In this document: piece after piece, positions 832-26,967 of the stretch | Numbering within the stretch: the stretch's first letter is position 1 | Layout: each line of letters opens with the position of its first letter | IMG/VR virus record: IMGVR_UViG_3300017605_000626 | Location: 1 to 64,000 of that record | DNA: 64,000 bases | Origin: a virus | Lineage: Duplodnaviria > Heunggongvirae > Uroviricota > Caudoviricetes | Strand: one strand, 5' to 3' | The notes under the pieces: model-generated | What the model was told of the DNA's origin: nothing | The model's input: the letters and a program-made list of their open reading frames with translations, nothing else | Databases searched by the model: none | Program-made: the position numbers and the translations under genes

Positions 832-1593
832 TTAGTTTTTTACATACTGACTGAAATCAAGCACATCATTAAAGATTACCTGTGCTTCAGTCTTTGCGTT
901 ACTATTGATCACGTTCTGAATATTGTCTGGTCCACCGAACATACTAGTCATTCTCTCTACTTGTGGAGTTAGATTTTCCGCAAGCCTAGCCAGCTTGTAC
1001 ACTTGGCGAAGCAGCTTATCAGAGTCACACCAGAAGTTGGATAATACTCGGTATTCTACACCATAAGGCTTTGTACGAAAGCATCCAGCCTTACCATACA
1101 TCTTCTTTCTTTCAGTATCATGATCATTAAGCACAGACCACATACCAAGAGTTAAATCACAAGCTCTGATTGTTTCTGGTGTACCGCCTTCAATGTGCAA
1201 ATGACCTCCAAAGGTTCTTAGTGTAGTCCTTGCATCAGGCGGCTCATTCATATCCAACGTCCAAGCATTAAAGTCCGGCATACAGCCCATTTCCATAGCG
1301 CCTTTTACACTCTTTAAATCTTCTTTAATATAATGAGCACTAGGAACAGCCAGCAATCGACCTCTCCAATACTTCTTTCTTACTTCCTTAATCAATTGTA
1401 GAACATTGTCTACAAACTGATCTTCAGTTTCGGCAGGTGGAGGGGTAATTTCAATAGCCACACCATCCAATTCAACTCCGCCATGAGTCAATTGTTCAGC
1501 ATTTCCTTTAGTTCCAGTGATAGGTAAAATTCCAGCAGGCTTAAAAACTCCATCCATCTGCAACGCATATTCGATATCGTATCCGAGTTTCAC
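832..1593 (-). CDS. hypothetical protein (253 aa)
   Basis: Long ORF. Its ATGA start/stop overlaps the upstream gene at 1590-1593, typical of phage operon packing. Confidence 0.5.
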   Translation of the reverse strand: MKLGYDIEYALQMDGVFKPAGILPITGTKGNAEQLTHGGVELDGVAIEITPPPAETEDQFVDNVLQLIKEVRKKYWRGRLLAVPSAHYIKEDLKSVKGAMEMGCMPDFNAWTLDMNEPPDARTTLRTFGGHLHIEGGTPETIRACDLTLGMWSVLNDHDTERKKMYGKAGCFRTKPYGVEYRVLSNFWCDSDKLLRQVYKLARLAENLTPQVERMTSMFGGPDNIQNVINSNAKTEAQVIFNDVLDFSQYVKN

Positions 1594-3334: not shown

Positions 3335-3413
3335 TGGTAGCCCCTATAGGATTTGAACCTATGATCTATCGCTTAAAAGGCGAGTGCATTGAACCAGACT
3401 TTGCTAAGGGGCT
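3335..3413 (-). tRNA. tRNA-Lys (anticodon TTT), CCA encoded
   Basis: Minus-strand cloverleaf: acceptor AGCCCCT/AGGGGCT, T-arm ATAGG-TTCAAAT-CCTAT, anticodon loop CTTTTAA (U33, TTT, A37), discriminator A + CCA. Confidence 0.75.
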
Positions 3414-3708: not shown

Positions 3709-3785
3709 TGGAGGCCCCGGTCCGACTTGAACGGACGACCCCAAAATTAGAAGTTTTGTGCTCTATCCAACTGAGCTACGGGGCC
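3709..3785 (-). tRNA. tRNA-Arg (anticodon TCT), CCA encoded
   Basis: Acceptor GGCCCCG/CGGGGCC, D-arm GCTC..GAGC, anticodon stem CAAAA/TTTTG with loop CTTCTAA, T-arm GTCCG-TTCAAGT-CGGAC, discriminator T + CCA. Confidence 0.8.
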
Positions 3786-3790: not shown

Positions 3791-5140
3791 TTAAGAGGAC
3801 ATTACATTAGACTGCATTTGATCTAACAACACTCTATGAAAATTTGCTTTATCTACTTTCTCCATAGTGTAAGAACTACAAAGATACCCCTCATTCCTAG
3901 TGTGTCCTATAGATTGATATCTTACTGGAATTCCTATATGCTGGCCGATCAAAGCGCATAGTTCATAACTAAATACAGTTACTATTTTACCATTAACTTT
4001 TACAGGAAAATTTCTATCACTAACCTGGTTTAAACAACTAACTGCAATATTGAATTTAAATCCTTCATCATCATTAATCGTTCTTACAAAACGTTTCACA
4101 GCATCTAAATGAATTAGGCGGCCTAAATTTAAATATTCTTTTATGTCAGTTAAGATAGCTTCTTTCATTAAATCTAAATCCAAAGCACCAAAACGTAGTG
4201 TGCCTTGAAATTCATTTGGTTGATTAGTTAAATCAAGGTAAGACATTTTAGGATCTTCAGTTGGAAATGGACCAGCACCATGACGTGTCATATAAGGTCT
4301 AGTCACATATGTGACAGTAACATTCATTTCCTTGTCTGATTTAATTCTTTGTAAATGAGCTTTCAAGTTTAAAATAGTTTCTTTTACATTGGTTAAACCA
4401 GTTTTACTGTGTGTTACATAGGGGAAAAATCTATGATCTTGGTCTAAAAGTAATCCCTGAGCACCTTCAAATACCAAGTTTTTATAGGTATTTAAATATG
4501 CTTCATCAGTTATTGTAGAACTGCTGTTCATTTGAACAGCCGTATTTACCCAGTTATACATGAGCGCCACTGATTCCCATTTTTCTTTAAACCAATTAGA
4601 TGGGTAATCTACTTTCGCTTCTTGAAGCCTATGACTTACATAGAAATCACGTATATTAGCTAATTTACCTTTAACTACTTGAAAGTTGTTAAGATCACTA
4701 GCATGTATAGTAGTTCTTGGGAATTTTTTGTGCCTTTGAACAGTTTCGTTAATTCCTACACCACAAGTAGTGCCTTTTTTTGACAACTCTGCATTGAGAA
4801 GCATATCATAAGGCGTAGTTACTATCGCATCTCTATGAATCTTTAGAATTATCTTTTTATCATATTTTTTTTCTAGTTCTTTAGCTTCTTTTTTCCAAAG
4901 AAACGGATTAAGAATAAATTCTTTACCGAGAAATGTATCTGCACCACAAAATGTACCGCTGCCAAAATGGTGGAACACATGCTTATTTCCAGCAGGAGTA
5001 GTTACAGTGTGACCAGCTTGTGCCCCGCCATTAAAGCGAATAACACAGACATTGTTCCTGCATTCATTAACGAAATATTCAGTCCAATACCCTTTACCGG
5101 AATCTCCAAAATTAGCATCTATTACAACGTAAATATTCAT
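3791..5140 (-). CDS. adenylosuccinate synthetase homolog (PurA/PurZ family), 449 aa
   Basis: N-terminal P-loop GDSGKGY (PurA GDEGKGK) and GGAQAGHT (PurA GGHNAGHT). Collinear similarity to E. coli PurA through the C-terminal FGALD region. Confidence 0.8.
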   Translation of the reverse strand: MNIYVVIDANFGDSGKGYWTEYFVNECRNNVCVIRFNGGAQAGHTVTTPAGNKHVFHHFGSGTFCGADTFLGKEFILNPFLWKKEAKELEKKYDKKIILKIHRDAIVTTPYDMLLNAELSKKGTTCGVGINETVQRHKKFPRTTIHASDLNNFQVVKGKLANIRDFYVSHRLQEAKVDYPSNWFKEKWESVALMYNWVNTAVQMNSSSTITDEAYLNTYKNLVFEGAQGLLLDQDHRFFPYVTHSKTGLTNVKETILNLKAHLQRIKSDKEMNVTVTYVTRPYMTRHGAGPFPTEDPKMSYLDLTNQPNEFQGTLRFGALDLDLMKEAILTDIKEYLNLGRLIHLDAVKRFVRTINDDEGFKFNIAVSCLNQVSDRNFPVKVNGKIVTVFSYELCALIGQHIGIPVRYQSIGHTRNEGYLCSSYTMEKVDKANFHRVLLDQMQSNVMSS

Positions 5141-5367
5141 TTGCGTCTCAATGTAATTAAAGGAAAATGAAACAGTTCAATTCCTTTTTTAGTAATCATA
5201 GAACAGGCTTTAATAATCAAAATATCTTTCAATGTATCAGGACGTGATAACCAATAAGACTGTATATTCAATTCAATACAAAGATTTTCTACATCTGCCT
5301 GTAAATCAGTAGCTACTACGAATTTATGTAAATCTTCGCCTTTAGGTTGCCAATTAACTTGTATCAT
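5137..5367 (-). CDS. hypothetical protein (76 aa)
   Basis: Track ORF with 4-nt overlaps to both neighbours. Confidence 0.4.
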   Translation of the reverse strand: MIQVNWQPKGEDLHKFVVATDLQADVENLCIELNIQSYWLSRPDTLKDILIIKACSMITKKGIELFHFPLITLRRK

Positions 5368-6140
5368 AGTTTTGTATAGCTAGATATCGCTTTTACCAAT
5401 TTAACAATGTCATGAGCATAGAAACCAGCAGAATTTAGTCCATTAAATTCTACTACATATGATTCACCATTATATAATGCAACGTCCATAACACAGCATT
5501 CATGAGGCAACCACATATCTGCTAAGGCTTGAGCCTCTTTTAACACAGCTTCATCAGTCTCTTCATATTGATATGGTTGATCGGATAGTCTGTAAGAACT
5601 GCCAGTTATAATTTTACCACCAACAATGAAATATCTCCATTCCATATCAATCTTTTTTGGAATAGATAAAGATATTTTAGTATCGCTGTTCATTTCACAT
5701 TCTACTGATTCAAGCCGCTCAACCCAAGAAATAAGATCTTTTCCAGTAATAACGTGTCCTGCAAAACTCTTTGTGTCGTCTAAAGGGCGAATAAACCAAT
5801 TAAATCTCAATCCTGCAAAATGCAAAGCATCATGTAAGGACACTATTAAAGCATCTTTGTTAAGCATAGCAGGATGCTTATAATTATACATATTTACAAA
5901 AAAATTGTCATTATGAAAGACGTATTTCCAATTAAGAGACTTTGCTAACTTGACTAAAGAAGTGGAGCCATGAGGAATAAAATCAGTGCCTTCAAGGTTA
6001 AGAGAAAGTTCATTCTCTTTAATCCAATTAAGAACACGATGCTGTTCTATCATAATAAAGAATTCTTCAGCTTCTTTTAAAGCAGCAAGCATTCTACCTG
6101 TTGTTCTATCTTTGCAGTTTTGAATTACCCATGTAGACAT
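5364..6140 (-). CDS. ATP-grasp-like domain protein (258 aa)
   Basis: C-terminal VALYNGESYVVEFNGLNSAGFY resembles the ATP-grasp (E-x-N) nucleotide-binding segment. Weak call. Confidence 0.4.
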   Translation of the reverse strand: MSTWVIQNCKDRTTGRMLAALKEAEEFFIMIEQHRVLNWIKENELSLNLEGTDFIPHGSTSLVKLAKSLNWKYVFHNDNFFVNMYNYKHPAMLNKDALIVSLHDALHFAGLRFNWFIRPLDDTKSFAGHVITGKDLISWVERLESVECEMNSDTKISLSIPKKIDMEWRYFIVGGKIITGSSYRLSDQPYQYEETDEAVLKEAQALADMWLPHECCVMDVALYNGESYVVEFNGLNSAGFYAHDIVKLVKAISSYTKL

Positions 6141-6222: not shown

Positions 6223-6414
6223 TTACCAACTATGCCAAGAACAATAAACAATTTCCTTATGACAATTAGGGCAGTGATCAAAAGAAGTGTTAGTTAAAAT
6301 ATTACAATTATCACAAGTAATATAACATGTTCCATCCAAAGAATCACTGTCATAAGTTACTGTAGTTTGGTCTGGTTTTAAATCCTCTAATTTGTTTATA
6401 ATTTTTATTGTCAT
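6223..6414 (-). CDS. zinc-ribbon protein (63 aa)
   Basis: CDNCN...CPNCH. Confidence 0.4.
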   Translation of the reverse strand: MTIKIINKLEDLKPDQTTVTYDSDSLDGTCYITCDNCNILTNTSFDHCPNCHKEIVYCSWHSW

Positions 6415-7298
6415 CTGTCTAGGTAAACTCTTACAAAGTTTTTGCTGTTATCAATGACTAAAGAGCTTTTATCCTCATGAACAACCAGCCCCACTTCTTT
6501 ATAGCCAGCACTTCTTTCACAAGCAGCAATAGTATTAACAATACCTTGAGCTAGATAGCTCTCATCTCTCACCGAGATGGCGGCTTCACCTAACAATCTT
6601 TTCCAAGTCTTTTCTACTGGCTGGCTATTAACAGGTTTGATAATCAAATGAAAAACATTCCAATATTCTTGAGTAACAGCTAGAAGTTTTTCAGTATCAA
6701 TATCTTCTTGACATCCCACGCCCATAAAGCTTCTAATATGTTCGGCTTCAATGATAGGCAGAACACACTCATCACCAATGGTAAATAGATAACCTTTCTT
6801 GTTTCTCTTTCTCCAGGCGTCAGTCTTAACCTTGAAAGTAGCAAACCACCAAGGTAAAGAATAAGATTCTCCTCCATTACTACCACCATTTGCTTCCAAA
6901 TAAATAGAAGCAACCTGCTGCGTTATAGCGTCAACAGAAGCCTCAAACTGAGTTACCTGCAACGGCGCTCTATCAGAAAAAGCATCCCCAACTCCCATAC
7001 ACATAATGTGGGGATCTCTTACAGGCTTGGTATCATAAATTTCTTTCATGATAACGCCAAGATCATGCTTGATAATCTGCTCAGCAAGCCGACCCATAGA
7101 ACCTGTTTCATCTACAGCTAAGATAATAGGTGTAGATTCTGGATTAGCGTCTGAGTCTACTGATTCACGAAAATCAATCTTACTAGGATCTAAGGCAGGA
7201 TCAATTTCCCTTTTAGTAAAAATCTCTTTTCTAGATTTATTGCTAACTGTTTTAGTATAGCTTGTCCAATCATTTGCATCCCAACGTGCATTTCCCAT
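6411..7298 (-). CDS. von Willebrand factor A (vWA)-like domain protein
   Basis: ILAVDETGSMG, a MIDAS-like DxTGS motif. Confidence 0.5.
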   Translation of the reverse strand: MGNARWDANDWTSYTKTVSNKSRKEIFTKREIDPALDPSKIDFRESVDSDANPESTPIILAVDETGSMGRLAEQIIKHDLGVIMKEIYDTKPVRDPHIMCMGVGDAFSDRAPLQVTQFEASVDAITQQVASIYLEANGGSNGGESYSLPWWFATFKVKTDAWRKRNKKGYLFTIGDECVLPIIEAEHIRSFMGVGCQEDIDTEKLLAVTQEYWNVFHLIIKPVNSQPVEKTWKRLLGEAAISVRDESYLAQGIVNTIAACERSAGYKEVGLVVHEDKSSLVIDNSKNFVRVYLDR

Positions 7299-7915: not shown

Positions 7916-9151
7916 TTATTTTTTAGGTACAGATAAATCCAAGGCTAAATCCTTGGCGGTCTTAGCTTGCAAAAGATCAATTAAAGCTTGGGCACCATTA
8001 GCACTTCCACTTTGCCCGCCACCCATAACTACGCTAGGAACCCAAGCACCTTGATACTTAGAAATTGCATCAGCATACTTTTCGTTAACGGCCAAATATG
8101 CTTGTAGCTTTTGAGTTAAAGCACCATCAGCAAACATAACCAGCTTTTTCTTCTCTGACTCACCTTGACCTTCAAGGATTAATTTCTGCTTAGTAAATTC
8201 AGCGGCATCACGCTCTAACTTTGCAACTTCTCTCTGTTGCTCGGCTTGTGTAACTGCTTGAGCCTTAACAACTTCTTGATCCCATTTAGCTTTAGCAGCA
8301 TTGGCTTGGCCTTCCATTTCCACAGTCTGCTTTCTCTGTTCAGCTTGCTTTGCCTGTGCAATAGAAGTTTGAACTTGCATTGCTAGGTCTTGCTGCTTCT
8401 TGATTTGACCTTCAACTGTTTCATCGTAATTAAGCTGTTTAATTGAAAAGTTAAACGGCTTAAGACCAAACTGACTGAGTACACCTTTCTCTTGCCGAGA
8501 AATCTGGCCATTCTTATCTCTAGTAATTTCTACAATCGTAACAGTTTTCTCAATCTGCTCATTAAGAGGGTCTTTTACACGAATATCTTTTTGTGTGGTT
8601 TGATACACACCATTTTCAATCTGATCTTCAATATACTTGATCAAATCGTTACGCATTTCTGCTGATGACTGCTTAGACGACATTAAAGAACCAGTTAAGT
8701 ATGTGGCTTTGTTTACTACAGTTTCAATAAGTTGTTTTTGAATAGCCTCTTGACTACCAAACTTTGTATACAGATTATACAAATTCAGCTTGTCTAGCGG
8801 AACTTCATACTGAATTGAGCCGACTAAAGTGCCATGTCCATTATCATTGAATCTAATGGGAATTTGAAAATCATAACTATCTCTCTTCTTAAAATAAGTG
8901 GCTCTACCACCACCTTGCCACTTAATTCCAGGATTGATATTGTAAGAGATTCCACCCATTGGATATTGAACAATCAGAATATCCTCTGCATTTGTCTTTT
9001 CAAACAAATTCATCAACACAATTGGTCCAATGAAGAACAGAATTAATCCAGCAAAAAGCAATTTACCAAACTTTTTTGCTGCTCCAAAAGTATTTTCTAG
9101 ATTACTAGGTCTACTGCCAGGTCTAAAGTTCATTTTGATCTTCTTCCTCAC
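7916..9151 (-). CDS. SPFH/band-7 (stomatin/HflKC-like) membrane protein with coiled-coil tail
   Basis: N-terminal TM (LLFAGLILFFIGPIVLM), a central domain, and a long A/Q/E/K-rich coiled-coil segment typical of the SPFH family. No single diagnostic motif. Confidence 0.45.
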   Translation of the reverse strand: MRKKIKMNFRPGSRPSNLENTFGAAKKFGKLLFAGLILFFIGPIVLMNLFEKTNAEDILIVQYPMGGISYNINPGIKWQGGGRATYFKKRDSYDFQIPIRFNDNGHGTLVGSIQYEVPLDKLNLYNLYTKFGSQEAIQKQLIETVVNKATYLTGSLMSSKQSSAEMRNDLIKYIEDQIENGVYQTTQKDIRVKDPLNEQIEKTVTIVEITRDKNGQISRQEKGVLSQFGLKPFNFSIKQLNYDETVEGQIKKQQDLAMQVQTSIAQAKQAEQRKQTVEMEGQANAAKAKWDQEVVKAQAVTQAEQQREVAKLERDAAEFTKQKLILEGQGESEKKKLVMFADGALTQKLQAYLAVNEKYADAISKYQGAWVPSVVMGGGQSGSANGAQALIDLLQAKTAKDLALDLSVPKK

Positions 9152-9941: not shown

Positions 9942-9954
9942 GGGCTAAGTTTTT

Positions 9955-10042
9955 GGTAGCGGCGGAGGGAATTGAACCCTCACGGAATTTAATCCACCAG
10001 ATTTTAAGTCTGTTGCGTATTAGCCAGTTTCGCCACGCCGCC
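9955..10042 (-). tRNA. tRNA-Leu (anticodon TAA), type II with long variable arm, CCA encoded
   Basis: Acceptor GGCGGCG/CGCCGCT, D-arm GCG..CGC, anticodon loop CTTAAAA, long variable arm, T-arm GAGGG-TTCAATT-CCCTC, A73 + CCA. Confidence 0.8.
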
Positions 10043-12245: not shown

Positions 12246-12608
12246 TTATTCCTCTATAGCTCTGTAATATTCTTTAGACCCAATTCGAGCATCAATTACA
12301 TTTTTATACTCAGATAATTTTTGGACCATTCTTGGTCTAGCCACATCATTAAAACTATGGCAAATAATTATTGCATTACTATGATCTATGTGCCCCCTAG
12401 ATACCTGTAAATACCAAATCACAGGCATAAAAGTCTCTGCCAAAGTAATGTTTGGGTCTGGTAAGAACACAATATCATGGTCAATACTAATAATATCCCA
12501 TTTAACTGGTGATCTTAGGGCGGCTATGGCCTCAGTATTTGTGCGGGATACATGCCAAGTTTTATCTGGCGGCTTTCTAACGTCGTCTATAAAGAGTTTG
12601 TTTTTCAT
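12246..12608 (-). CDS. hypothetical protein (120 aa)
   Basis: Track ORF. Confidence 0.4.
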   Translation of the reverse strand: MKNKLFIDDVRKPPDKTWHVSRTNTEAIAALRSPVKWDIISIDHDIVFLPDPNITLAETFMPVIWYLQVSRGHIDHSNAIIICHSFNDVARPRMVQKLSEYKNVIDARIGSKEYYRAIEE

Positions 12609-15343: not shown

Positions 15344-15982
15344 TTACTCGTTGTTTGCCGAGTACTTAGATTTATATTCTTCATCTTTTTCAATTGTTTT
15401 CTTAAAAAACATATTTGCAGCGGTATGGTAAATGATAATTCCTTCTGCGGGTTTAAAACCAGGAGAAGCTTTGCTTCCATTGACACTTAAATCTTCTAAG
15501 GTTCCCCAAATAGCGTTTTCATTAAAAATACCTCTATATAGAACAGGTACTACATGGCAACATTTTGGAGCATTTTCAGGCGTCCATCTTGTAGTATTAA
15601 ACAAAGAAAATCTCTTTTCACCTAATCCGTATCCTCTTTGAATACCTCTGCCCCACCATTCACCAAAGTGAGTTCCAGGACCAAGTTTAGCAAGCTCTTC
15701 AGATTCTGCACGAACCCAATTAGCAAAACCTGCATTGTCATTTTTAGGAGTAATCCATTTATTTCTGGAAGCAGCTATAATTGCCAACCCATCCTTCACG
15801 CAAGTAGCCGTCGTTTCAACAAAATGTTCAGATATTAAAGGGTCAATAGAAAAGGCATTTACATAGTTAATTGTGATAGACGCATTAGTTCCGTCTATTT
15901 TTTCAGATATGACAATTTCTCTACTTAATCTTGGTATTTTAGGAAACGGCTGAAAATCCATATTATCCTCATTGTAATCCAA
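15344..15982 (-). CDS. RNA ligase (Rnl2-like nucleotidyltransferase domain)
   Basis: Motif I EKIDGTN (T4 Rnl2 EKIHGTN), the lysine-adenylation KxDG motif. Confidence 0.55.
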   Translation of the reverse strand: MDYNEDNMDFQPFPKIPRLSREIVISEKIDGTNASITINYVNAFSIDPLISEHFVETTATCVKDGLAIIAASRNKWITPKNDNAGFANWVRAESEELAKLGPGTHFGEWWGRGIQRGYGLGEKRFSLFNTTRWTPENAPKCCHVVPVLYRGIFNENAIWGTLEDLSVNGSKASPGFKPAEGIIIYHTAANMFFKKTIEKDEEYKSKYSANNE

Positions 15983-16548: not shown

Positions 16549-16734
16549 TTACTTGTTAATACAATTGGATTGCACATCAGGGAAAAGAAGGTTAAACAAA
16601 CTGTTCAAACACTTCATACAAAGGGTAATTTTTACGGTGGGATTATCTTTATTAGAGAAAATAGCAAGCTCTTTACGAACATCTTGATTATTGTCACATT
16701 GGAAACAATCGTCTGTAGAAGGTTTAAGAATCAT
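16549..16734 (-). CDS. small Cys-rich protein (61 aa)
   Basis: CFQCDN...CMKC. ATGA-coupled to the upstream gene. Confidence 0.3.
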   Translation of the reverse strand: MILKPSTDDCFQCDNNQDVRKELAIFSNKDNPTVKITLCMKCLNSLFNLLFPDVQSNCINK

Positions 16735-17330
16735 TCTGGTATCTCCAAAGCAAAGATTTCATCAGCTACTCCACCAGCACAAGCCAACATTTGCTGGATA
16801 TATCCTCTTGAATAAAGAGAATAGGCATTAGAATACCAAACGCCTTTTGACCAATGACCACCAGATTCATTTGCTACGGTAATGTCACCAGTGTTATCAA
16901 TAAAGGCGAGTTTATTCCAACCCCCAACCAATTGCTCAAGCAAATCAAGTTTTTCCTTGTAATCAGGAAGGAAATATTTTTTCAAGATTTTTTCGGTAAA
17001 GGTCCAGGTATCTGACTTACCTTCTGGAATTCCTTTAATGTCAATAACTCCGTTATGAAATACCACCACATCTTTAGACATTTCAAACGGATGGCACATT
17101 TCTAGGCCAATAGTGCCATGTGTGCCCGCCCTAAAGTGCGCGACATATGGACGGCCATTAATCTGGTTAAAAAGCGGTCTTATATCGGCATAATACATTG
17201 TTTTATATACTTCTAGCTTTCCATTATTAGCAAAAGCAATGCCAAAACCGTGTGGGTTATGATGATAAGCATTTTCAATCTTATTTTCTGGCATTAACTT
17301 CCCTTCTCTACTACAAAGCAACAAACACAT
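16731..17330 (-). CDS. class-II glutamine amidotransferase-like (Ntn, YafJ-type) protein
   Basis: N-terminal MC(LLLC) putative nucleophile Cys2, HGFGIAF segment. Confidence 0.4.
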   Translation of the reverse strand: MCLLLCSREGKLMPENKIENAYHHNPHGFGIAFANNGKLEVYKTMYYADIRPLFNQINGRPYVAHFRAGTHGTIGLEMCHPFEMSKDVVVFHNGVIDIKGIPEGKSDTWTFTEKILKKYFLPDYKEKLDLLEQLVGGWNKLAFIDNTGDITVANESGGHWSKGVWYSNAYSLYSRGYIQQMLACAGGVADEIFALEIPE

Positions 17331-17821: not shown

Positions 17822-18613
17822 TCATTTTTGTTCGGTTAAGTACAAGAAGGCACTGCCAGGAGTTTTCATTTCAATAAGTATTTGTACTACTTCTTCAGCA
17901 AAGAAAGACAATTCTTTGTCCTTGGCTAATTTTTTAGCAGCATAAGCAGCAGCACCAGCAGCACCAGCAGCACCAGCACCAGCAGCATAAGCAGCATAAG
18001 CACCAGCAGCAGCAGCATAATCACCAGCACCAGCAGCATAAGCAGCAGCAGCATCAGCAGCAGCATAAGCAGCATAAGAAGCATCAGCATAAGAAGCATC
18101 AGCAGCGGCAGCAGCAGCATAAGCAGCATCAGCAGCAGCAGCAGCAGCAGCATAAGCAGCATCAGCAGCATCTTTAGTGCCTTCTATTTCACATCTCTTT
18201 GCTGCATTTAATAAAGAATTTTTATGGGTTTTATTTAATTTTGCAGCAGATCTTAAAGCACGCGGTAAAATACGTCTTATTGTCATTTCTACGACTTTAC
18301 TAAGAAATTCTTTTTCATCCAACGTACCAGAAGTTCCAAGTTGTGCTACAGCAATTCTACGCAACCCAATAGCTCTAGCTCTGTCAGATGACCAATCACA
18401 ATCATTCAAAGAAATTTTCAAGCTCCTTAAAGATGGTGCTACACACTTTGGTTCATCACCGTGCGGCCAGCCAAAAGCATAGCAAACAGCCGCTTCCACA
18501 CACATTTTACCAGGTATAGGCTGGCCTTTGCCCTTACACAACCCTGCATCAACTACTTCTAAAACCTTAACGGCGTTTTGTTCTGTAATCTCCATTTTAT
18601 TTCTTCTTATCAA
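17822..18613 (-). CDS. protein with Ala/Tyr/Asp low-complexity C-terminal half
   Basis: Approximately 110-aa run of AAYAAAAAADAAY encoded by a GCAGCA repeat. Confidence 0.5.
   Translation of the reverse strand: MIRRNKMEITEQNAVKVLEVVDAGLCKGKGQPIPGKMCVEAAVCYAFGWPHGDEPKCVAPSLRSLKISLNDCDWSSDRARAIGLRRIAVAQLGTSGTLDEKEFLSKVVEMTIRRILPRALRSAAKLNKTHKNSLLNAAKRCEIEGTKDAADAAYAAAAAAADAAYAAAAAADASYADASYAAYAAADAAAAYAAGAGDYAAAAGAYAAYAAGAGAAGAAGAAAYAAKKLAKDKELSFFAEEVVQILIEMKTPGSAFLYLTEQK
17926..18171. repeat. (GCAGCA/GCATAA)n trinucleotide microsatellite inside a CDS
   Basis: Approximately 245 bp of GCA/GCT-phase repeats. The opposite-strand poly-Leu ORF is an artefact of it. Confidence 0.8.
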
Positions 18614-19766: not shown

Positions 19767-20008
19767 TATAGCTTGTAATAGGAGATGAAATTAAGAACAG
19801 ACTGTGAGGGTGTATAACCAAGTTGTGCGGTTAAATACCGAGTATACATTCTTTCCTTGGCCTTTTCTTCTTCAACAGACAAAAGGGAAAATGCTTTTTC
19901 GTCAATGCATCGTACTGTAAACTCGGCCACAGCATCAGCAGCAGCATAATCTCCGGTTAAAACTAGAGCAGTTCGAGCAGCAGAAGTTACAATCTTTTTG
20001 GCAGTCAT
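19766..20008 (-). CDS. hypothetical protein (80 aa)
   Basis: Track ORF. Confidence 0.4.
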   Translation of the reverse strand: MTAKKIVTSAARTALVLTGDYAAADAVAEFTVRCIDEKAFSLLSVEEEKAKERMYTRYLTAQLGYTPSQSVLNFISYYKL

Positions 20009-20725
20009 AAATCCCCCTAATTAATAAGCGTGTTAGGTAGTGGAATTAAATTGATCAAACGGTTAAACACTAATTCAATCGCCTCATCAATTGATTCCAG
20101 GTTATTAGCAAAACAGATCATTGCTAAATCACCTAAAGAATAATATGGTAATTCAAATATCTTTCTTGCTTTTTCATCATTTGTCATAAATCACCAATTA
20201 AAAAGGTAAATGGGAAGTAGGCGGCAACAGCCTGCCAGGACTTCCCATTAATAGGTCGTTCAGTTTCCCAGATTTAATTTATTTTGTTGTTTAGAATCTC
20301 ATTGTGTAGCCCTCCATATGGTTAAATACGCCTTATGGCGCATATGCTTATTAATGGCGGGTTTGGCTAGGTCCACCATTAACCTCTGCTGAGGCTATAT
20401 CTTATATATTATCTAATTTAATTTAATAAAGCTCTTTTCGTTACGTTCGCGCAAAGCATACAATCCCATACCAAAGCAATTGTAAACCGTTTTACCTTCC
20501 ACGGATAAGGAAAGCGCATAACAAATTGAGCACTAGTTGGAGCAATTTCCACACTAGCTTTGCAAGTCTATCGGCTATCCCCGTGTCACTCTTATCAGTT
20601 AGTATAATTCGCGGTTAAACGCCTTCAATTATACTCCTTGGACAAAGAAAATGACCGCAGTTCAACTAGCCGCACTTAGATTATTTCCAGTATTAGCTTC
20701 AGCCTAAAGCCACAACCAAAAATAC

Positions 20726-21379
20726 CTATGCGTTGGTTAAAAAATTACGGAGATAAACCAAATTATGCTGACTGTTATTTGGATCTTTCTCAGTAATTTG
20801 TAGATTAGTAAGCAGTTTATCTAGAGAAACATTGAACTCGCCTTGAACTGCCCTAATCTCAAACTCCTCTACTACATGGAGACAACGTGCAATCCATCTG
20901 GGGTGGAGACACATGTTAAAGAGCCTAAACTCCACCGTTTTATGCTCTGTTGGAAAGGATATGCAATCATGATGCAATCCAGTTCCTTTAATCCGCTCAT
21001 TTGCAGCCCCATCATTAAACCAAGTACCACTACCGCGACGATATACATTTGGGCGGAAAGACAATTTCTTTTCTTTGTAGAAATTCATAACTTTGCCGCA
21101 ATCAAGCAATAAAAGAGAGTAATTGCCTGAGTTATGGATATGCATTCCACAGGTTTTATTACCTTTAGCGCCGATCATCTTGAGAAAAGCCGCCATCTCA
21201 AACACTTGGGCTTTTTGATCCCAATTAAGAACAGGACTGACAACTTCCACACCAAATGGTTCAATTGTCGGATCTATCTTATCCACCCAACCAGGAAACC
21301 AATCCTTTAAGGCTCTTACTTGGTTCTTATAGGTAGAACCCCTTATACCAGCAACCTCAAACTCAATTCCAAATGGCAT
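20726..21379 (-). CDS. putative amidoligase-family (COOH-NH2 ligase) enzyme
   Basis: GMHIHNSG, a G-x-H-x-H segment characteristic of the phage-associated 'putative amidoligase' family. Weak call. Confidence 0.35.
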   Translation of the reverse strand: MPFGIEFEVAGIRGSTYKNQVRALKDWFPGWVDKIDPTIEPFGVEVVSPVLNWDQKAQVFEMAAFLKMIGAKGNKTCGMHIHNSGNYSLLLLDCGKVMNFYKEKKLSFRPNVYRRGSGTWFNDGAANERIKGTGLHHDCISFPTEHKTVEFRLFNMCLHPRWIARCLHVVEEFEIRAVQGEFNVSLDKLLTNLQITEKDPNNSQHNLVYLRNFLTNA

Positions 21380-21538
21380 ATAAATTCTCCAATTAAGAAT
21401 TAAATCGTTTTATTAAAACAATTAACAAAGTAATTGCCTTAATAAAACGGGCGATATCCCCGGTGATACCGCCCATTCACAAGCTATATCGCTATAGCCA
21501 ACACTAGGGCAAGTTATCCGGCATCCTAGTAAAAACGG

Positions 21539-21928
21539 TTAAGCCTTTGCACGAACGATCTTATTCTTGCTTCCCTTGGGACGACCACGCCCTTTCTTAG
21601 AGTTGCCATTAACAAGAGAATTTGCCAGTTTCAGCAAATCCTTTGGGTTAAGCTTCTCCAAAGCCGCAAGAACGGGATTCTCCATAGTCGCCACAACATT
21701 CTTGGGACGACCGTTAGGGAGCAATCTCACCGCAACCTGAACATCTAGATTATCGTGACCAGGCAAAGCCGAATAACGGGAATTACCTACTCCAGTTCCG
21801 GTTAAGGAATAGATTCGGTTGCCCTGTGCATTCGGCTCAGATAGCCGATCAGCAGGGAGTTTGCTGGTATCAATGGTTAACGTGAAACCAGGCCCACTGA
21901 TCGTGGTTACATTTACAATCTTAGGCAT
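21539..21928 (-). CDS. AT-hook DNA-binding protein
   Basis: C-terminal KKGRGRPKGSKNK. Confidence 0.45.
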   Translation of the reverse strand: MPKIVNVTTISGPGFTLTIDTSKLPADRLSEPNAQGNRIYSLTGTGVGNSRYSALPGHDNLDVQVAVRLLPNGRPKNVVATMENPVLAALEKLNPKDLLKLANSLVNGNSKKGRGRPKGSKNKIVRAKA

Positions 21929-22079
21929 TTGTTTTTCACCTCCTTTTTTGTAGAAATTAAAGAGTTTAGGACTTGTTAGGGCAGATAATATAGCTACTTC
22001 GAAGTGTAGAAGGTATCCCGTGGGATACCCCTACTAGCAATTATCTGCCCTAGCAAAGCCTAAGCTTTGCTTTCTACGA

Positions 22080-22541
22080 TTACTTGCATTCAACCGTAGA
22101 ATTTTCCATTCTTGTGCGGAATTGCTGCGTTTCTGCGTCAAAGGTCGCCCTAAGAACGTAGCGCACAATTAAATCATTGTCTGGACCGCTACCTGACAAC
22201 ACAAACTTTTGTCTGATTCCCTGATCGGTGAGCGTGTTCCTGTCAAACTGAAACTGTGCTTTCTCGTCAATGCGGACTTTATAGACGGCATTGCTCACCA
22301 TTCCGATGCCGACAGTATTATCCCCTTCTTTGACGTGGAATTGTACTAGGCCGATTGAACCATTAAACATCAGGTGAATGTTGGCAATTAACGAACCTGA
22401 AACTGCAACTGGTTCAGTAGTGCATGGCGCACTAAAGACTCCGCTCATTGGGGATTCTTCAGTGTAGTTCTGTTGCTGAGCAGCGGCATTCAAACTCAAA
22501 CAACAAACAATCATCATCAAAACGGTTAACATGCTTTTCAT
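22080..22541 (-). CDS. secreted protein with signal peptide
   Basis: MKSMLTVLMMIVCCLSLNAAAQQ. Confidence 0.5.
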   Translation of the reverse strand: MKSMLTVLMMIVCCLSLNAAAQQQNYTEESPMSGVFSAPCTTEPVAVSGSLIANIHLMFNGSIGLVQFHVKEGDNTVGIGMVSNAVYKVRIDEKAQFQFDRNTLTDQGIRQKFVLSGSGPDNDLIVRYVLRATFDAETQQFRTRMENSTVECK

Positions 22542-22574
22542 GCTACTAATCTCCTTTTTGTTTGGGCTGAGAAA

Positions 22575-22868
22575 TTAATACTGAATCTTGGCTGACAGAT
22601 AGGCAATATCTGTCATTGCTTTTTCCGCCTTATCTTCTGCGGTTACTCCAACTTGAGCCTCATACCGCGCAAGGTCAGCTTGCCGACGGATAAGAGCCTC
22701 TTTTCGCTTTTGATCCTTCGATTTGGGCATTAAAACCTCCATTTGAGATATACTTACTGCTGCACCAGGTACTCGCCTTCTAAAATCTGTTACAGAGTTT
22801 CTACTAGCACGCCGCCAATTCATGAAAAAATCTCCGGTTAAGTAAAGAGAACTAGGCTGTAAAGCCAC
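22575..22868 (-). CDS. hypothetical protein (97 aa)
   Basis: Track ORF. Confidence 0.4.
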   Translation of the reverse strand: MALQPSSLYLTGDFFMNWRRASRNSVTDFRRRVPGAAVSISQMEVLMPKSKDQKRKEALIRRQADLARYEAQVGVTAEDKAEKAMTDIAYLSAKIQY

Positions 22869-23234
22869 ACACAGAAAAGAAAGAAAATCTCAAGCCAATC
22901 ATCTTTCATGGCAATTATCCAATTAAAAATTTTTTAGTGCAATTTTGACAAACTAGAGCAGAGAAATGTTTTACCCAAATTAATGGGTATTTGCAGTTAT
23001 AACAGCGTCTATTAATAATTCTAGACACCATTCTGCTAAAGAAGTATCTAATACTGTCAAACATGAAACCTCCAATTCCTTTTCTAAAAACTAAAACGTA
23101 TTTAGTGTTTAGAAAAAGATTATCCAGTTATTCAAGCGATACTGGTAAACGCTCTCTTGGCTACAGGCGCATATAACCTCCAAGGTTATTTATTCAATTA
23201 AGAGAGAGGCAAATTCTACGTCTCACAGAATGGA

Positions 23235-23510
23235 TTAACTACGCGGTAAAGACTTGATGAGTCTTTCGTAGGCGTTTGGAAATTCTTTTTCGTAGTTAGG
23301 ATCAACTTCTCCTAACTCGTAAAGCTTTCCAGAACGAACGATAATCTTGTTTTCTTCCGAGTTAAACGCCATGATACCAGAAGTATTGATTGATTTACCA
23401 TCTTCAAACTTCGGATGGTTAAAAACCTTTCCATGAAGCCTTGGCGTTCTAGCTTCCGGTGCTTGAAACGGGTTATCACACGTAACGCACCAGTTTTCCA
23501 ATCTAGGCAT
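23235..23510 (-). CDS. hypothetical protein (91 aa)
   Basis: Track ORF. Confidence 0.4.
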   Translation of the reverse strand: MPRLENWCVTCDNPFQAPEARTPRLHGKVFNHPKFEDGKSINTSGIMAFNSEENKIIVRSGKLYELGEVDPNYEKEFPNAYERLIKSLPRS

Positions 23511-23528
23511 TTCTTCTCCTTTTTGCGG

Positions 23529-23804
23529 TTAAAACCCGCTACCTAAAAGATTTGCTAACAAACCAGAAATAAACTCTCTGTGCCTTTCAAGCCGATAAAG
23601 CTCTTGTGGCTCGTTCTGGCTTTTAATCCAACTAATTGCCCTGTTAACATCGTCCATCAATTCCCGCAAACATGGGAAACTTGGATAACGTGGATGTTTT
23701 CTCTTTGACGTGATTTGTCGCACGTTAACGGGATTAGTTAAACCAGGGCAATTAAGACAGCCATTAGAATACACTGGAAAATTGCAGTTATTGCACAGTT
23801 CCAC
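23529..23804 (-). CDS. hypothetical Cys-rich protein (91 aa)
   Basis: CNNCNF...CLNCPG. Confidence 0.4.
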   Translation of the reverse strand: MELCNNCNFPVYSNGCLNCPGLTNPVNVRQITSKRKHPRYPSFPCLRELMDDVNRAISWIKSQNEPQELYRLERHREFISGLLANLLGSGF

Positions 23805-23808
23805 AGGG

Positions 23809-24063
23809 TTAACCTCTCATGGATTTGAGTTTCTTGCTATGCACGCTACCAGTTCTACCAGATTTTGCTTTGTGAACTGGTTTACAACCGTGTTTCAGGG
23901 CTTGGATTGCCTTCGTTTTCTCCGCATTCTGAATTTGCTCACGGTTATCACCCTTTACGTTCCAGTTACAATCAGGAAACCCACAAGAAGGACATTCTGC
24001 CTCTTCTGGGAAACCATCAGGAACCATTATGGTATCGCTGGCACACTGTGGACAATAAAGCAT
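23809..24063 (-). CDS. zinc-ribbon protein (84 aa)
   Basis: CPQC...CPSC..C. Confidence 0.4.
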   Translation of the reverse strand: MLYCPQCASDTIMVPDGFPEEAECPSCGFPDCNWNVKGDNREQIQNAEKTKAIQALKHGCKPVHKAKSGRTGSVHSKKLKSMRG

Positions 24064-24073
24064 GGTTAAAACC

Positions 24074-24340
24074 TCACCCGTAAACTAGGATTTGTCTACC
24101 TTCTGGGCCTTTCACACAAATTCCACGGGATAATGGGCCGGATGAATCCCGCTCACCGTCAAAGAATTCTCCAACGGGAAAGTAATTGCTGGTTAAGAGC
24201 CAATTAAAAGCCTTTCTTTCCCATTCTAGGTACTCATCGCTGCAATACCCTTCATAATCAAAATCGGCTGGAAGGATATCGCACAGATTGCGGTAAAGCT
24301 TTCTGGTAGGACGAAAAACCATTGTTACAGTGTTTTCCAT
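24074..24340 (-). CDS. hypothetical protein (88 aa)
   Basis: Track ORF. Confidence 0.4.
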   Translation of the reverse strand: MENTVTMVFRPTRKLYRNLCDILPADFDYEGYCSDEYLEWERKAFNWLLTSNYFPVGEFFDGERDSSGPLSRGICVKGPEGRQILVYG

Positions 24341-24528
24341 AGCAAAACCTCCAGTTAAGAATTAGGGCTTATTGGAGAGGGCTTCGATTATAAACCCGTT
24401 GTTAAAGGGGTTTACGGGTAGAGTTATATAAGGAACTCCAGTTCCGTATTTCGCTCAATTCGCAATTGAGCACGGTATTTTTATATTCCCCGTTGTGCTC
24501 TGGAGTAACCAGCCCTCTCTAATAAAAC

Positions 24529-24731
24529 CTAATTACCTGTTAACTTAACCAGGTATCCGCGCAAAGTAGAAAGCTCTTCGTGTGGATCGGTTGAGATTAT
24601 GAATCTAGCACCATTGGGATGATTCCCGCTGGTTAACAAGATGCATCCCTTTTCTTCGTAATTCATCATGGCAGGAACGGCTCTTGTCATTATCTCGCTT
24701 TTAACAGCGATTGTGTAATGTAGTGGTTTCA
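24529..24731 (-). CDS. hypothetical protein (approximately 67 aa; track ORF trimmed to the SD-supported internal ATG)
   Basis: ATG MKPLHY with AGGGGAAA upstream. Overlaps the stop of the next gene. Confidence 0.35.
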
Positions 24732-24911
24732 TTTGGTTTCCCCTGAGTGAAGGAACATGATTGAAACGGTTAAACAAATTAGGGTTAATGCGCCTGTAAA
24801 CCAGGTGGCGAAAGTTTCGTTTTGCTTTAACGAAACTCCATAGCAAGCCGCCATTAAGACGGTCATTGCTAGAAACAAAAACGAAAGCGTGTAATTAACG
24901 ATTTTATACAT
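24729..24911 (-). CDS. small membrane protein (60 aa)
   Basis: Two hydrophobic helices. Confidence 0.35.
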   Translation of the reverse strand: MYKIVNYTLSFLFLAMTVLMAACYGVSLKQNETFATWFTGALTLICLTVSIMFLHSGETK

Positions 24912-25039
24912 TTCTCAAAATTCCCCCCAAATTTTACCATTAAAGCCGATTAGAAGCCCTTTTTCATTCAACCAGGCACACTAGAGATTTTCCAAGATTC
25001 ACAAAATTTAATTTGCGCTTATTGGGAAACCACCAGGCC

Positions 25040-25070
25040 AAAAAAATAGGGAAGGCATTATGCCTTCCCT
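25040..25070 (-). terminator. rho-independent terminator of the 386-aa island gene
   Basis: Hairpin AGGGAAGGCAttatGCCTTCCCT followed on the minus strand by TTTTTTT. Confidence 0.6.
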
Positions 25071-25094
25071 TGTACCAAAAAGCCTATTAGCTAT

Positions 25095-26255
25095 TTAGGC
25101 TTTGTGAAGGTTCCTGTTAACGTGCCTCGTTAACTCTTGAACCTGCCTCTTTAGTTCTCTAGCTTGCTTGCGAGCTTGCTTTTCCTTCATTCGTGCCTGC
25201 TTATCTTTCAACCGATCAAAGGCAGAGAATTGACTAGACATTTCTTTTTCTTGTCTAGGTCTACCATAGATTGCTCGGGTGATTGCTCCAACTGTGGGTA
25301 ATTCAATTACCTGACCTGCCTCGCAGTATTGTTTATCTGTCAAGTCAGGTTCAAATGACCTGTTAGGTAAGCTTGGAATACAGATAGGCACTAACACGTC
25401 CCTATACTGGTACTGGCAGACCTGCCTTGATTTGATAACTTGCTTGGCAGACTGCCAAAAGGTTTCTTGAAAAGCTTGCGCTTGCTTTGTTTCTTGCGCT
25501 TGACCATAGAAACGAGTCTCTATCTTTGTGAAAGTCTGGCTTGATTCTCGGAGTATAACGTTCGTCCACATAGGCATATAAACGAAACCTGCCTGCCTGA
25601 CCTGACCTGTGGGAAAGTGTAATCTCTTCTTATGCCAGATCTTGAACCGTTCAAAATGGTTCCTTTCAATCTTCAATCGTCTCCATAGCAGAATTTTTTC
25701 CTGTGGCTTGTCAGGAACTGTTTTGACCTGTGCCTTTCTATCGTCTGGCAGGCCTGGCTTGACCTGCCTTTTCTTGGGATAGATAAGCCTTTCAATTCCT
25801 GCCAGTTCTGCAAGCTTGCGAGTGTCTTTAGGGAAGTGTCTTCTAGCTTTTTCTAACTGGACAATCAAGGTTAGAGGAACATGGGAATCACTTTCCAAAG
25901 GCAGGAACGTGAAACCATGCACATTATCCTGACTGTTGCCTTTGGTCCAACTGTCAAAACTTTCCGTAGCATAGGCAATACTGGCTTGTATTGCCTTGTC
26001 AAGCCTTTCCAAGCTTGCTTTGCGTTCCTGTGCCTGCCTTTTCCAGACAGGCTTAACCTGCTCGAACGTGGAACGTTTTTCGAGCAAACTGGAAAAGTGT
26101 TCAAAGGCAGTCTGCCTCTTTTCCCTTCCAAAGATATCTTGTTTTTCTGCGAGGCAGTTCCAATCTCGAATAGCTTGGCTTTTGTCGATACCTGACAAAG
26201 CAATACAGGTTTCGACAAATGACCAAGCAATAACATGCCAACTAGGACTAGTCAT
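25095..26255 (-). CDS. basic K/R/Q-rich 386-aa protein (possible DNA-binding / replication-initiator-like), hypothetical
   Basis: Long ORF inside the GC-rich island with its own terminator. C-terminal basic coiled coil. Contains the CCTGCCTG repeat motif internally. Confidence 0.5.
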   Translation of the reverse strand: MTSPSWHVIAWSFVETCIALSGIDKSQAIRDWNCLAEKQDIFGREKRQTAFEHFSSLLEKRSTFEQVKPVWKRQAQERKASLERLDKAIQASIAYATESFDSWTKGNSQDNVHGFTFLPLESDSHVPLTLIVQLEKARRHFPKDTRKLAELAGIERLIYPKKRQVKPGLPDDRKAQVKTVPDKPQEKILLWRRLKIERNHFERFKIWHKKRLHFPTGQVRQAGFVYMPMWTNVILRESSQTFTKIETRFYGQAQETKQAQAFQETFWQSAKQVIKSRQVCQYQYRDVLVPICIPSLPNRSFEPDLTDKQYCEAGQVIELPTVGAITRAIYGRPRQEKEMSSQFSAFDRLKDKQARMKEKQARKQARELKRQVQELTRHVNRNLHKA

Positions 26256-26535
26256 TGCCTGCCTGCCTTTCCGATACCGTGCAATAAGTATCGTGCCATC
26301 CGTTCAATCCACCGCAAAACTCGCATTGTGTTTCCATGCCTTCATAAACTGGCAGGTAGGTAGGAACTATTTGAACCTGCCTTGCGTTCTTTCTGTTCTT
26401 TCGATCAAAGCGCTTGCAAGTTTTTTGAAACCTTGAGAATAACAGTCTTTTCCCAAGCTTTGAATCTGCCTGCTCAATAGACTTCAAAGGCAGGTTCAAA
26501 GTTAGTGTAGTTTGGTATCCGTATAACTTGTTCAT
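26248..26535 (-). CDS. hypothetical protein with C-terminal Cys/His cluster
   Basis: CEFCGG..WHDTYC. Confidence 0.35.
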   Translation of the reverse strand: MNKLYGYQTTLTLNLPLKSIEQADSKLGKRLLFSRFQKTCKRFDRKNRKNARQVQIVPTYLPVYEGMETQCEFCGGLNGWHDTYCTVSERQAGND

Positions 26536-26555
26536 TGTTTTACCTCATTGCGGAC

Positions 26556-26594
26556 ATAAAAAAAATGCCTGCTAGCACGATGCTAGCAGGCATT
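26556..26594 (-). terminator. rho-independent terminator
   Basis: 14-bp perfect inverted repeat AATGCCTGCTAGCAcgaTGCTAGCAGGCATT followed on the minus strand by TTTTTTTT. Confidence 0.65.
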
Positions 26595-26620
26595 GGAGAA
26601 AATGACCTGCCTGACCTGAC

Positions 26621-26967
26621 CTACTTTCCTGCCTGCCCCTTGTTCAATCCCTTCAGGTAGGCTTCAAGCAAGGGCTGGAATTGCGCGTCTGTGCGTGCCT
26701 TGCGTGCCAGTTCCTTTTTCTCGTCTGCGTCCGGAAATTCCGTGGAACTGTCTGTAATTCTGATCGAGACTGCGAACGTTCCAAGCTTCAACGTGTCCTG
26801 AAAAACAGTTGTGATGCCTGTCGTTTTCGATGCCTGATTCTGTTTGATGATATCGGCAACGTCGATTGACAGATGCGAACCATCAAGAACAGCACTCGAA
26901 CCCAAGCGCGTCATATCTGTAAAGCGCTTTACTGCCTCTGCCTTTACTGCCTTTGTTGCCTTTGCCA
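26621..26967 (-). CDS. hypothetical protein (115 aa from the SD-supported start MAKATKAVKAEA)
   Basis: AAGGAG 7 nt upstream of ATG at 26967. The track ORF extends further upstream. Confidence 0.5.

Follow-up and report, generated by a model that had tools for sequence, protein, structure and literature searches.

A phage adenylosuccinate synthetase homologue with a von Willebrand A partner gene: a predicted third branch beside PurA and PurZ

Results

We analyzed a gene on the minus strand at 3791..5140 of a 64,000-nucleotide stretch of viral DNA (Caudoviricetes; positions 1 to 64,000 of IMG/VR record IMGVR_UViG_3300017605_000626), referred to here as the window. The window is phage-like, with three tRNAs and a family-A polymerase, and no near-identical phage was found in GenBank. 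An earlier note on this DNA had read the gene as an adenylosuccinate synthetase homologue and had framed a choice between PurA, carried as an auxiliary metabolic gene (AMG), and PurZ of phages with a 2-aminoadenine (Z) genome. The open reading frame (ORF) lies at exactly the coordinates reported there and encodes 449 amino acids from an ATG start. Its homology was confirmed by a match to Pfam PF00709 (Adenylsucc_synt; 148 bits, E=4e-43, residues 5-348) and by sequence hits on PurA structures from bacteria, with E values of 1e-19 to 1e-21. An AlphaFold2 model of the enzyme (predicted local distance difference test, pLDDT, 88; predicted template-modelling score, pTM, 0.88) had full-length PurA as its top structural matches (E=2e-24, TM 0.68-0.70), with weaker matches to archaeal PurA (2e-16), PurZ (1e-15) and PurZ0 (2e-13). 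Model confidence was low at residues 121-130 and 301-310, which form both substrate-closing loops. The P-loop reads FGDSGKGY (residues 11-18), and EFQGTLRFGALD in the enzyme aligns with EFGATTGRRRRTGWLD of E. coli PurA.

The earlier note had asked for a phylogeny with PurA, PurZ and PurZ0. In a neighbour-joining tree with 100 bootstraps, one clade (bootstrap 100/100) united the enzyme with its homologues, those of the Rhizobium phage and of Catera among them, and stood outside the PurZ plus PurZ0 clade (94/100) and apart from the PurA of E. coli and P. horikoshii; the branch length of the enzyme was unremarkable. Scores against the curated PurA equivalog models were far below their cutoffs: 104.7 against 395.55 for TIGR00184, 119.4 against 402 for NF002223, 102.2 against 445 for NF010355 and 54.6 against 368 bits for NF003295. 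Three close relatives in the clade likewise fell below the PurA cutoffs. Relatives of the enzyme are encoded on at least 343 IMG/VR stretches and also in the genomes of free-living bacteria, Clostridium carboxidivorans among them. Judged by tree and model scores, the gene falls in a third branch of the adenylosuccinate synthetase superfamily, large and uncharacterised, beside PurA and PurZ. Because the protein belongs to this branch, the choice between PurA and PurZ was incomplete, and it overlooked a partner gene nearby.

That gene encodes a protein of 295 amino acids that we call Y (6411..7298, minus strand; phrog_2971). Window Y is 54-55% identical to Y encoded by genes that abut PurA-like genes elsewhere and matches Chlorobi Y at E=6e-106; searches with Y returned neither a Pfam match nor a PDB sequence match. 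The AlphaFold2 model of Y (pLDDT 86.5, pTM 0.87) matched integrin beta-I, pilus adhesin, bacterial von Willebrand A (vWA) and TFIIH p44 vWA domains in Foldseek. By this model Y adopts a vWA fold and carries a motif resembling the metal ion-dependent adhesion site (MIDAS), and the invariant residues Asp63-x-Thr65-x-Ser67, Thr116 and Asp176 are placed in the canonical MIDAS loops of vWA. The fold and the D-x-[ST]-x-S / T / D pattern are shared with vWA-MIDAS partners of prokaryotic conflict and regulatory systems, from which Y differs by the missing Pfam vWA match and by an N-terminal extension and a Gly-rich insert of its own. The insert reads EANGGSNGGESY in the window and has the consensus EGxGGGNGGESY. 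The extension is conserved over about 50 residues, begins with Met-Gly and forms a flexible tail in the model. Gly occupies position 2 in 246 of 258 full-length proteins, and the exceptions are mostly alternative or mis-called starts. The Y family comprises 2,104 clusters at 50% identity, all stand-alone proteins of about 300 amino acids, and is found in genomes of at least 590 bacterial species. No domain fusions of Y were seen among the top 150 representatives, and profile matches begin at residue 1.

Conservation of the pair was assessed in 80 viral loci retrieved from IMG/VR with the enzyme and 80 bacterial loci retrieved with Y. Y lay directly upstream of the enzyme gene, on the same strand, in 78 of the 80 viral loci, and a PurA-like gene was present in 76 of the 80 bacterial loci. 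The two genes abut, with nothing between them, in the locus of the closest Y relative (L172), and Y adjoins a PurA-like gene in Rhizobium phage RHph_TM3_3_6 (gp018) and Mycobacterium phage Catera (gp250). Y is thus an obligate partner gene, and the pair is a conserved two-gene module of phages and bacteria. No description of the clade or of its vWA pairing was found in the literature searched.

A third gene, X, encodes a J-domain (HPD motif) joined to a kinase-like domain. X and Y precede the PurA-like gene in four settings unrelated to one another: in the chromosome of Clostridium scatologenes, in a Chlorobi metagenome-assembled genome (MAG) and in two phage-like contigs. We regard X as accessory because it is present in only 62 of 80 bacterial and 17 of 80 viral loci; no X homologue was detected among the window ORFs. 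Examples lie at L002:8000-9037, L010:6035-7087 and L007:3595-4668 (Catera gp249). The catalytic-loop Asp of the kinase-like domain is replaced (HNSIS, HNAIS or HGAIT), which casts doubt on naming the proteins of Mycobacterium cluster C phages "serine/threonine kinase"; X is probably a pseudokinase, and its J-domain implies recruitment of host DnaK. PADLOC returned no defence-system match for the enzyme, Y or X. In some bacterial loci the module is followed by a lineage-specific fourth gene. It encodes an FAD amine oxidase in carboxydotrophic Clostridia (C. scatologenes, L002:11297-12976), whereas that of the Chlorobi MAG (L010:9229-9900) encodes a metallophosphatase. The product of the PurA-like enzyme could be a substrate for either protein.

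To compare active sites, functional positions of E. coli PurA were projected onto 202 clade members. The enzyme shares with PurA (EC 6.3.4.4; E. coli 1ade, B. anthracis 4m9d) the full-length fold, including the C-terminal nucleotide-base subdomain, together with the P-loop, Asp13, His41, Gln224, Thr239 and Ser414. Gly12, Asp13, Lys16, Gly17, His41, Glu221, Gln224 and Thr239 are invariant in the clade (201-202/202). These residues constitute the phosphotransfer and base-activation core of PurA (among them Lys16 of the P-loop, Asp13 as base and His41 as acid), which is retained in full under selection, and chemistry by way of a 6-phosphoryl-purine intermediate is probably shared with PurA.

Substrate-binding positions tell differently. 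PurA positions 302-305 are deleted in 202/202 clade members, leaving one Arg of GRRRR in a loop four residues shorter, and Arg131 is replaced by a hydrophobic residue (Leu, Val, Ile, Tyr or Met). In PurA, Arg131, Thr300/301 and Arg303-305 make up the L-aspartate site. Loops of the controls are full-length and basic: GTVTGRRRRVGWFD in P. horikoshii PurA, TTVTNKIRRVG in PurZ0 and TTVTKKVRRV in PurZ. The earlier note had described reduction of a phosphate-binding GRRRR to GTLRF. The shortening is real, but by established enzymology this is the aspartate loop rather than a phosphate-binding one, and the four-residue deletion is clade-wide and not peculiar to this protein. Its suspicion that the substrate may not be IMP was well placed, in that the substrate-binding loop is abnormal enough to make canonical chemistry doubtful.

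In PurA the IMP 5'-phosphate is held by Asn38, Thr129, Thr239 and an arginine donated by the other chain of the dimer, Arg143'; of these only Thr239 is kept. Asn38 has become Gln in 201/202 members and Thr129 has become Cys in 195/202, Thr128 is Ser in the clade, and Arg143 has no counterpart, aligning to a gap in 170/202. New invariant active-site residues are His in place of Val273 (202/202) and Gln in place of Gly298 (201/202), and Lys331 is changed to Cys or His. At position 333, 149 clade members have Asp, 48 have Asn and 5 have Lys; Ser414 is kept. The enzyme of this phage has Asn333 within a unique Cys331/Asn333/Gln334 combination. In E. coli PurA the D333N substitution moves specificity from GTP to XTP. 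Since the guanine-reading Asp333 is Asn here, specificity for the nucleoside triphosphate (NTP) may be altered, and the phosphate donor for this phage's enzyme may not be GTP. Two further substitutions, E14S (2/202) and D21E, are rare. The clade signature (Gln38, Ser/Thr128-Cys129, His273, Gln298 and a short loop with a single Arg) is present in the enzyme in the segments NGGAQAGHT, GTTCGVGINET, TRHGAGPFP and NEFQGTLRFG.

All 147 phage PurZ and PurZ0 proteins in a survey published in 2026 have Ser in place of the catalytic Asp13 of E. coli PurA, whereas Asp is retained in 99% of proteins in the PurA group (PMC12884076). In our alignment this position is Asp in 201/201 aligned clade sequences: the enzyme reads FGDSGKG and the clade FGDEGKG, against FGSTGKG in phiVC8 and pB23 PurZ and FGSEAKG in Litotes PurZ0. 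The GDSGKGY P-loop to which the earlier note had drawn attention is present, but its Ser occupies the Glu14 position, and Asp13, the site changed in PurZ, is kept. Like PurZ and PurZ0 (phiVC8 6fm1, S-2L 7odx, Archimedes 7vf6), the enzyme is a phage-borne PF00709 protein with Phe at the Trp11 position, and its C-terminal T-x-L-D-Q motif is similar to that of PurZ0 and archaeal-type PurA. Beyond Asp13, the enzyme differs from PurZ and PurZ0 in having lost the basic aspartate loop that both keep and in belonging to a separate clade without Z-cluster partners found, and from PurZ in lacking the ATP-stacking Phe295/Tyr298 context and in being about 100 amino acids longer. It scored 47.9 bits against the NCBIfam PurZ model NF038379 (amino_Aden_PurZ; cutoff 300). 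When the enzyme and phiVC8 PurZ were used as tblastn queries against 50,697 phage records, the two sets of relatives barely overlapped: Mycobacterium cluster C, Rhizobium and some Vibrio and Listeria phages for the enzyme, and Arthrobacter, Microbacterium, Acinetobacter, Gordonia and phiVC8-type phages for PurZ.

Gene context pointed the same way. The family-A polymerase (PolA) listed earlier at 44600..46855 (minus strand) was confirmed, but it scored 46 bits against the curated DpoZ model NF038380 (cutoff 500), for which the phiVC8 control scored 909. Its closest GenBank matches were in Tunturiibacter (Acidobacteria) phages (29-30%) and crAss-like phages (21-24%), none of them close, hinting at a deep-branching lineage with genomes of about 100-125 kb. 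In agreement with the earlier note, which had recognized no HD (DatZ) or MazG (MazZ) partner in the window, a Pfam screen of chosen window ORFs between 0.8 and 44.6 kb (mostly those of >=90 amino acids on the coding strand) detected no HD, MazG, DUF550 or NDT domain. A dUTPase at 43327..43785 was the sole Z-adjacent item found; it is a single-domain protein of 152 amino acids that scores like an ordinary Dut and is encoded 38 kb from the enzyme gene. Within 10 kb of the module in the 80 related viral loci, DatZ homologues numbered 0/80 and DutZ-like proteins 1/80. The enzyme matches PHROG 1211, which bears the PurZ-style name "2-aminooxy adenylosuccinate synthetase" and groups the "PurA-like" proteins of Mycobacterium cluster C together with PurZ; for the enzyme this name is an inherited annotation. 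In a restriction-enrichment study, phage contigs classed as non-dZ (canonical) encoded 17 PF00709 proteins, of which 14 lay outside the clade of PurZ (bioRxiv 10.1101/2025.10.22.683976). Identity with PurZ, and with it a Z genome, was rejected on Asp13, the PurZ and DpoZ models, the tblastn sets, the tree and gene context in the screened part of the window and the related loci. To the extent that sequence alone can decide the matter, the Z-genome lead fails, and the module is predicted to make no 2-aminoadenine.

A link to NAD and ADP-ribose emerged from the neighborhoods of related loci. In 41 of the 80 bacterial loci a regulator of the NrtR family (NrtR_WHD, 74 bits, plus NUDIX) stood beside the X-Y-enzyme operon, usually divergently. 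These loci span Gammaproteobacteria, Alphaproteobacteria, Actinomycetota, Acidobacteria, Clostridium and Desulfobacteria. NrtR senses ADP-ribose and controls NAD synthesis and salvage, including prs-nadV (PMC2330246; PMC9503650), and predicted systems under NrtR control include some whose vWA components are termed "Mg2+-dependent peptide-binding" (PMC9503650). Two-gene NrtR-controlled operons without an assigned function, nrtX-nrtY, were listed for Streptomyces, Frankia, Kineococcus, Proteus mirabilis and Hahella (PMC2330246); any kinship with X and Y would be conjectural. On the phage side, NadV/NAMPT was encoded near the module in 16 viral loci of 5 independent lineages, and a phosphoribosyl pyrophosphate synthetase (Prs)-like protein, with a Pfam score just under cutoff, in 13 loci of 2 lineages. 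Nicotinamidase (PncA) and metallophosphatase occurred in 12 viral loci each, in one lineage each, and the Rhizobium phage encodes NMNAT-Nudix and a phosphoribosyltransferase within 5 kb of the module. In 42 of 80 viral loci and 10 lineages, the gene just upstream of Y (e.g., L035:8468-9094) encodes an unannotated protein of about 209 amino acids. Its C-terminal tail is acidic, it matched no Pfam model, and no homologue of it is encoded in the window. Overall, phage-side evidence for the NAD link is modest.

The distribution of the module mirrors that of the NAD+ reconstitution genes with which phages counter NAD+-depleting immunity. As with NrtR-regulated NAD salvage (prs-nadV; NARP1/NARP2), it is dual, the module often standing beside NrtR in bacteria and, in several phage lineages, beside nadV/prs-like genes. 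The NAD+ reconstitution pathways described so far differ in including no PurA-type enzyme or vWA protein, and the module is connected with them by neighborhood alone, seen in loci other than the window. NARP3 was considered as a related system and set aside as unrelated, consisting of PnuC and NadR.

In this phage only, three tightly packed ORFs part Y from the enzyme gene, all on the minus strand. The start of a 63-amino-acid ORF (6223..6414), with weak zinc-ribbon Pfam matches below cutoff, overlaps the stop of Y by 4 nucleotides. The next ORF (5364..6140, 258 amino acids) encodes an R2K-clade ATP-grasp amidoligase (PF14243 R2K_3, 67 bits; PF18299 R2K_2, 55 bits; phrog_7313). A 76-amino-acid ORF (5137..5367), without Pfam or PHROG match, overlaps both its upstream neighbor, the ATP-grasp gene, and the PurA-like gene that follows by 4 nucleotides, an arrangement of translational coupling. 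As no homologue of the ATP-grasp protein was found in the other 80 viral loci or in L172, we consider it lineage-specific and outside the core module. Upstream of Y, a 411-amino-acid protein (7916..9151, minus strand; phrog_11908, 120 bits) matches Band_7 below cutoff (15.5 bits) and is possibly SPFH/Band-7-like and loosely associated with the module. A clear Band_7 (SPFH) protein is encoded upstream of Y in 19 of 80 viral loci from 6 lineages; phmmer gave no link between this recurrent protein and the 411-amino-acid ORF of the window.

Amidoligase-type genes are unusually concentrated in the first 21 kb of the window. In addition to the R2K ATP-grasp gene they comprise a phiEco32-like COOH-NH2 ligase (832..1593, minus strand; PF14395, phrog_3815) and an Amidoligase_2 (20726..21379, minus strand; PF12224), and the 199-amino-acid product of an ORF starting MC (16731..17330, minus strand) is an unconfirmed Ntn/class-II amidotransferase candidate. 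Together the amidoligase-type genes suggest a peptide- or protein-tagging system. The ATP-grasp and the COOH-NH2 ligase were also considered as parts of the conserved module and rejected, with none in the 80 related loci or the closest relative.

Elsewhere in the window, tRNA-Lys(UUU), tRNA-Arg(UCU) and tRNA-Leu(UAA) are encoded at 3335..3413, 3709..3785 and 9954..10042. Genes for a cREC_REC cyclic-phosphate-processing receiver domain (12246..12608, minus strand), an RNA ligase (15344..15982, minus strand; PF09414) and an RF-1/ArfB-like peptidyl-tRNA hydrolase domain (39230..39568, minus strand) were also identified. The RNA-repair and translation-rescue genes, together with the tRNAs, may counter anticodon nucleases. 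A second vWA-looking protein, unrelated to Y (42096..42920, minus strand, 274 amino acids), has a MIDAS-like IIDESGSM motif and no Pfam or NCBIfam match; its gene lies just upstream of the dUTPase/PolA block. A low-complexity ORF of 263 amino acids (17822..18613, minus strand) contains a long Ala/Tyr/Asp/Gly repeat tract, DAAYAAAAAAADAAYAAAAAADASYADASYAAYAAADAAAAYAAGAG, and the large ORF at 55109..60043 (plus strand) encodes 1644 amino acids. G+C content rises to 0.40-0.44 in islands at 20000..28000 and 56000..60000, against 0.31-0.37 elsewhere. Near 47 kb the sign of GC skew and the coding strand switch together, with minus-strand genes to the left and plus-strand genes of structural size to the right.

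Discussion

The vWA-partnered clade retains the active-site core of adenylosuccinate synthetase inside a substrate pocket that has been rebuilt. The reading that we favor, and to which we give an even chance in its composite form, is that of an NTP-driven enzyme activating and aminating purine C6, with altered substrates, that acts with Y in NAD/ADP-ribose-linked homeostasis or counter-defence. The enzyme would use an NTP, likely GTP for most members, to place a phosphate on the oxygen at C6 of a hypoxanthine-type nucleotide, predicted to lack a 2-amino group because Asp13 is retained. An amine would then displace the 6-phosphate, with the amine and/or the phosphate-bearing tail recognized otherwise than in PurA. 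Y probably assists in this and may stand in at the active site for the second subunit of the PurA dimer and for the arginine loop, and binding of carboxylates or phosphates by its metal site would suit either role. The product would serve adenine-nucleotide or NAD-related homeostasis, switched on in bacteria when ADP-ribose accumulates. Because the module's context is linked to NAD+ and ADP-ribose, we further propose that phages may deploy it in metabolic takeover or as counter-defence.

Several points weigh against this scheme. Substrate, nucleophile and NTP were all deduced from residue conservation, and the remaining loop Arg, with His273 and Gln298, might still bind aspartate. Physical interaction between Y and the enzyme is argued from gene adjacency alone. 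The NAD link in phages comes from few lineages (NadV 5/40; PncA and metallophosphatase one each), and NAD-related neighbor genes are absent from the window. The tree is a neighbour-joining tree with two PurA references only, and the sequence examined covers about half of a source genome of ~124 kb, starting 3.8 kb from the gene.

The strongest competitor is a PurA that has diverged yet remains functionally ordinary, converting IMP, aspartate and GTP to adenylosuccinate so as to raise the AMP/ATP supply of the infected cell, with Y as a regulator only. It would account for the conservation of all catalytic residues, for full-length bacterial PurA as the best fold and sequence matches, for the invariant loop Arg, and for Ser414 and, in most members, Asp333; a need for adenylate, such as AMP/ATP for NAD+ resynthesis, would also fit the NAD-salvage context. 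We nonetheless judge it rather unlikely, and the AMG alternative of the earlier note is not well supported, as the protein lies below all PurA cutoffs (at less than one third of each) and is without the aspartate-binding arginines. None of the 202 members retains Arg131 or Arg303-305, whereas the aspartate-using relatives examined keep a basic loop; the 5'-phosphate ligands are altered as well, and Arg143 is missing. Moreover, free-living hosts such as Clostridium carboxidivorans must presumably already have a housekeeping purA, and the strict vWA partner is left unexplained. A further departure from ordinary PurA would be use of a protein or peptide amino group as the amine, most attractively that of Gly2 of Y, giving an N6-linked purine nucleotide ("purinylation"). 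Loss of the arginines for the aspartate carboxylates would admit a carboxylate-free peptide amine, position 2 of Y is nearly always Gly (246/258) on a tail that is flexible in the model, matches start at residue 1 with no N-terminal fusions, and this phage's operon includes an ATP-grasp of the peptide-ligase type. This we consider a long shot, being purely circumstantial and without known precedent for such a modification; conservation of the N-terminus may instead reflect docking or a constraint on translation initiation, and stoichiometric self-modification has no obvious benefit.

Much less probable again is a catalytically dead pseudoenzyme kept as a scaffold or nucleotide sensor. The rare E14S and D21E substitutions and the unique Cys331/Asn333/Gln334 combination would be in keeping with such decay, but the phosphotransfer and base-activation residues are invariant in the clade and present here, on a branch of unremarkable length. 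Least credible of all is a PurZ or PurZ0 in a phage with a Z genome, to which we attach next to no weight. Its appeal lies in the PurZ-style name of PHROG 1211, the PurZ-like Phe in place of Trp11, and a window that holds both PolA and dUTPase. Against it, Asp13 is kept, the PurZ and DpoZ models score 48 of 300 and 46 of 500 bits, respectively, and the clade is separate; DatZ, MazZ, DUF550 and NDT were not found in the window ORFs screened or beside the 80 related viral genes, and the gene for the dUTPase, a single-domain Dut, lies at a distance of 38 kb. The PHROG merges cluster C "PurA-like" proteins with PurZ, 14 of the 17 PF00709 proteins on non-dZ phage contigs fell outside the PurZ clade in the restriction-enrichment study cited above, and bacterial chromosomes carry the same module under NrtR.

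One more specific version of a two-component enzyme deserves mention, although we think it unlikely to be correct as stated. Here the acceptor would be other than free aspartate: the enzyme would either N6-purinylate Gly2 of Y or another protein or peptide, or aminate a hypoxanthine-bearing dinucleotide or ADP-ribose-type metabolite within a so far undescribed pathway, induced by ADP-ribose under NrtR control, that phages have borrowed against immunity targeting NAD+ or adenine nucleotides.

Phage genes with an adenylosuccinate synthetase domain are now routinely read as Z-genome markers, and the name "2-aminooxy adenylosuccinate synthetase" is given by PHROGs and RefSeq even to the proteins of Mycobacterium cluster C. 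A large share of phage PF00709 genes would appear to encode a different enzyme, for which the Z-phage label would be wrong, and our findings caution in practice that a PF00709 match does not by itself make a phage gene a purZ. The gene studied here is better described as the predicted enzymatic half of a widespread, unstudied vWA plus PurA-like module, possibly with new chemistry. The rebuilt pocket, the obligate vWA partner and the links to ADP-ribose and NAD+ salvage make a new purine-nucleotide reaction directly testable, and cultured carriers include Mycobacterium phages Bxz1 and Catera (gp250-252), Rhizobium phage RHph_TM3_3_6 and Clostridium carboxidivorans. If such a reaction exists, it may add a layer to the contest between phages and bacteria over nucleotide pools.

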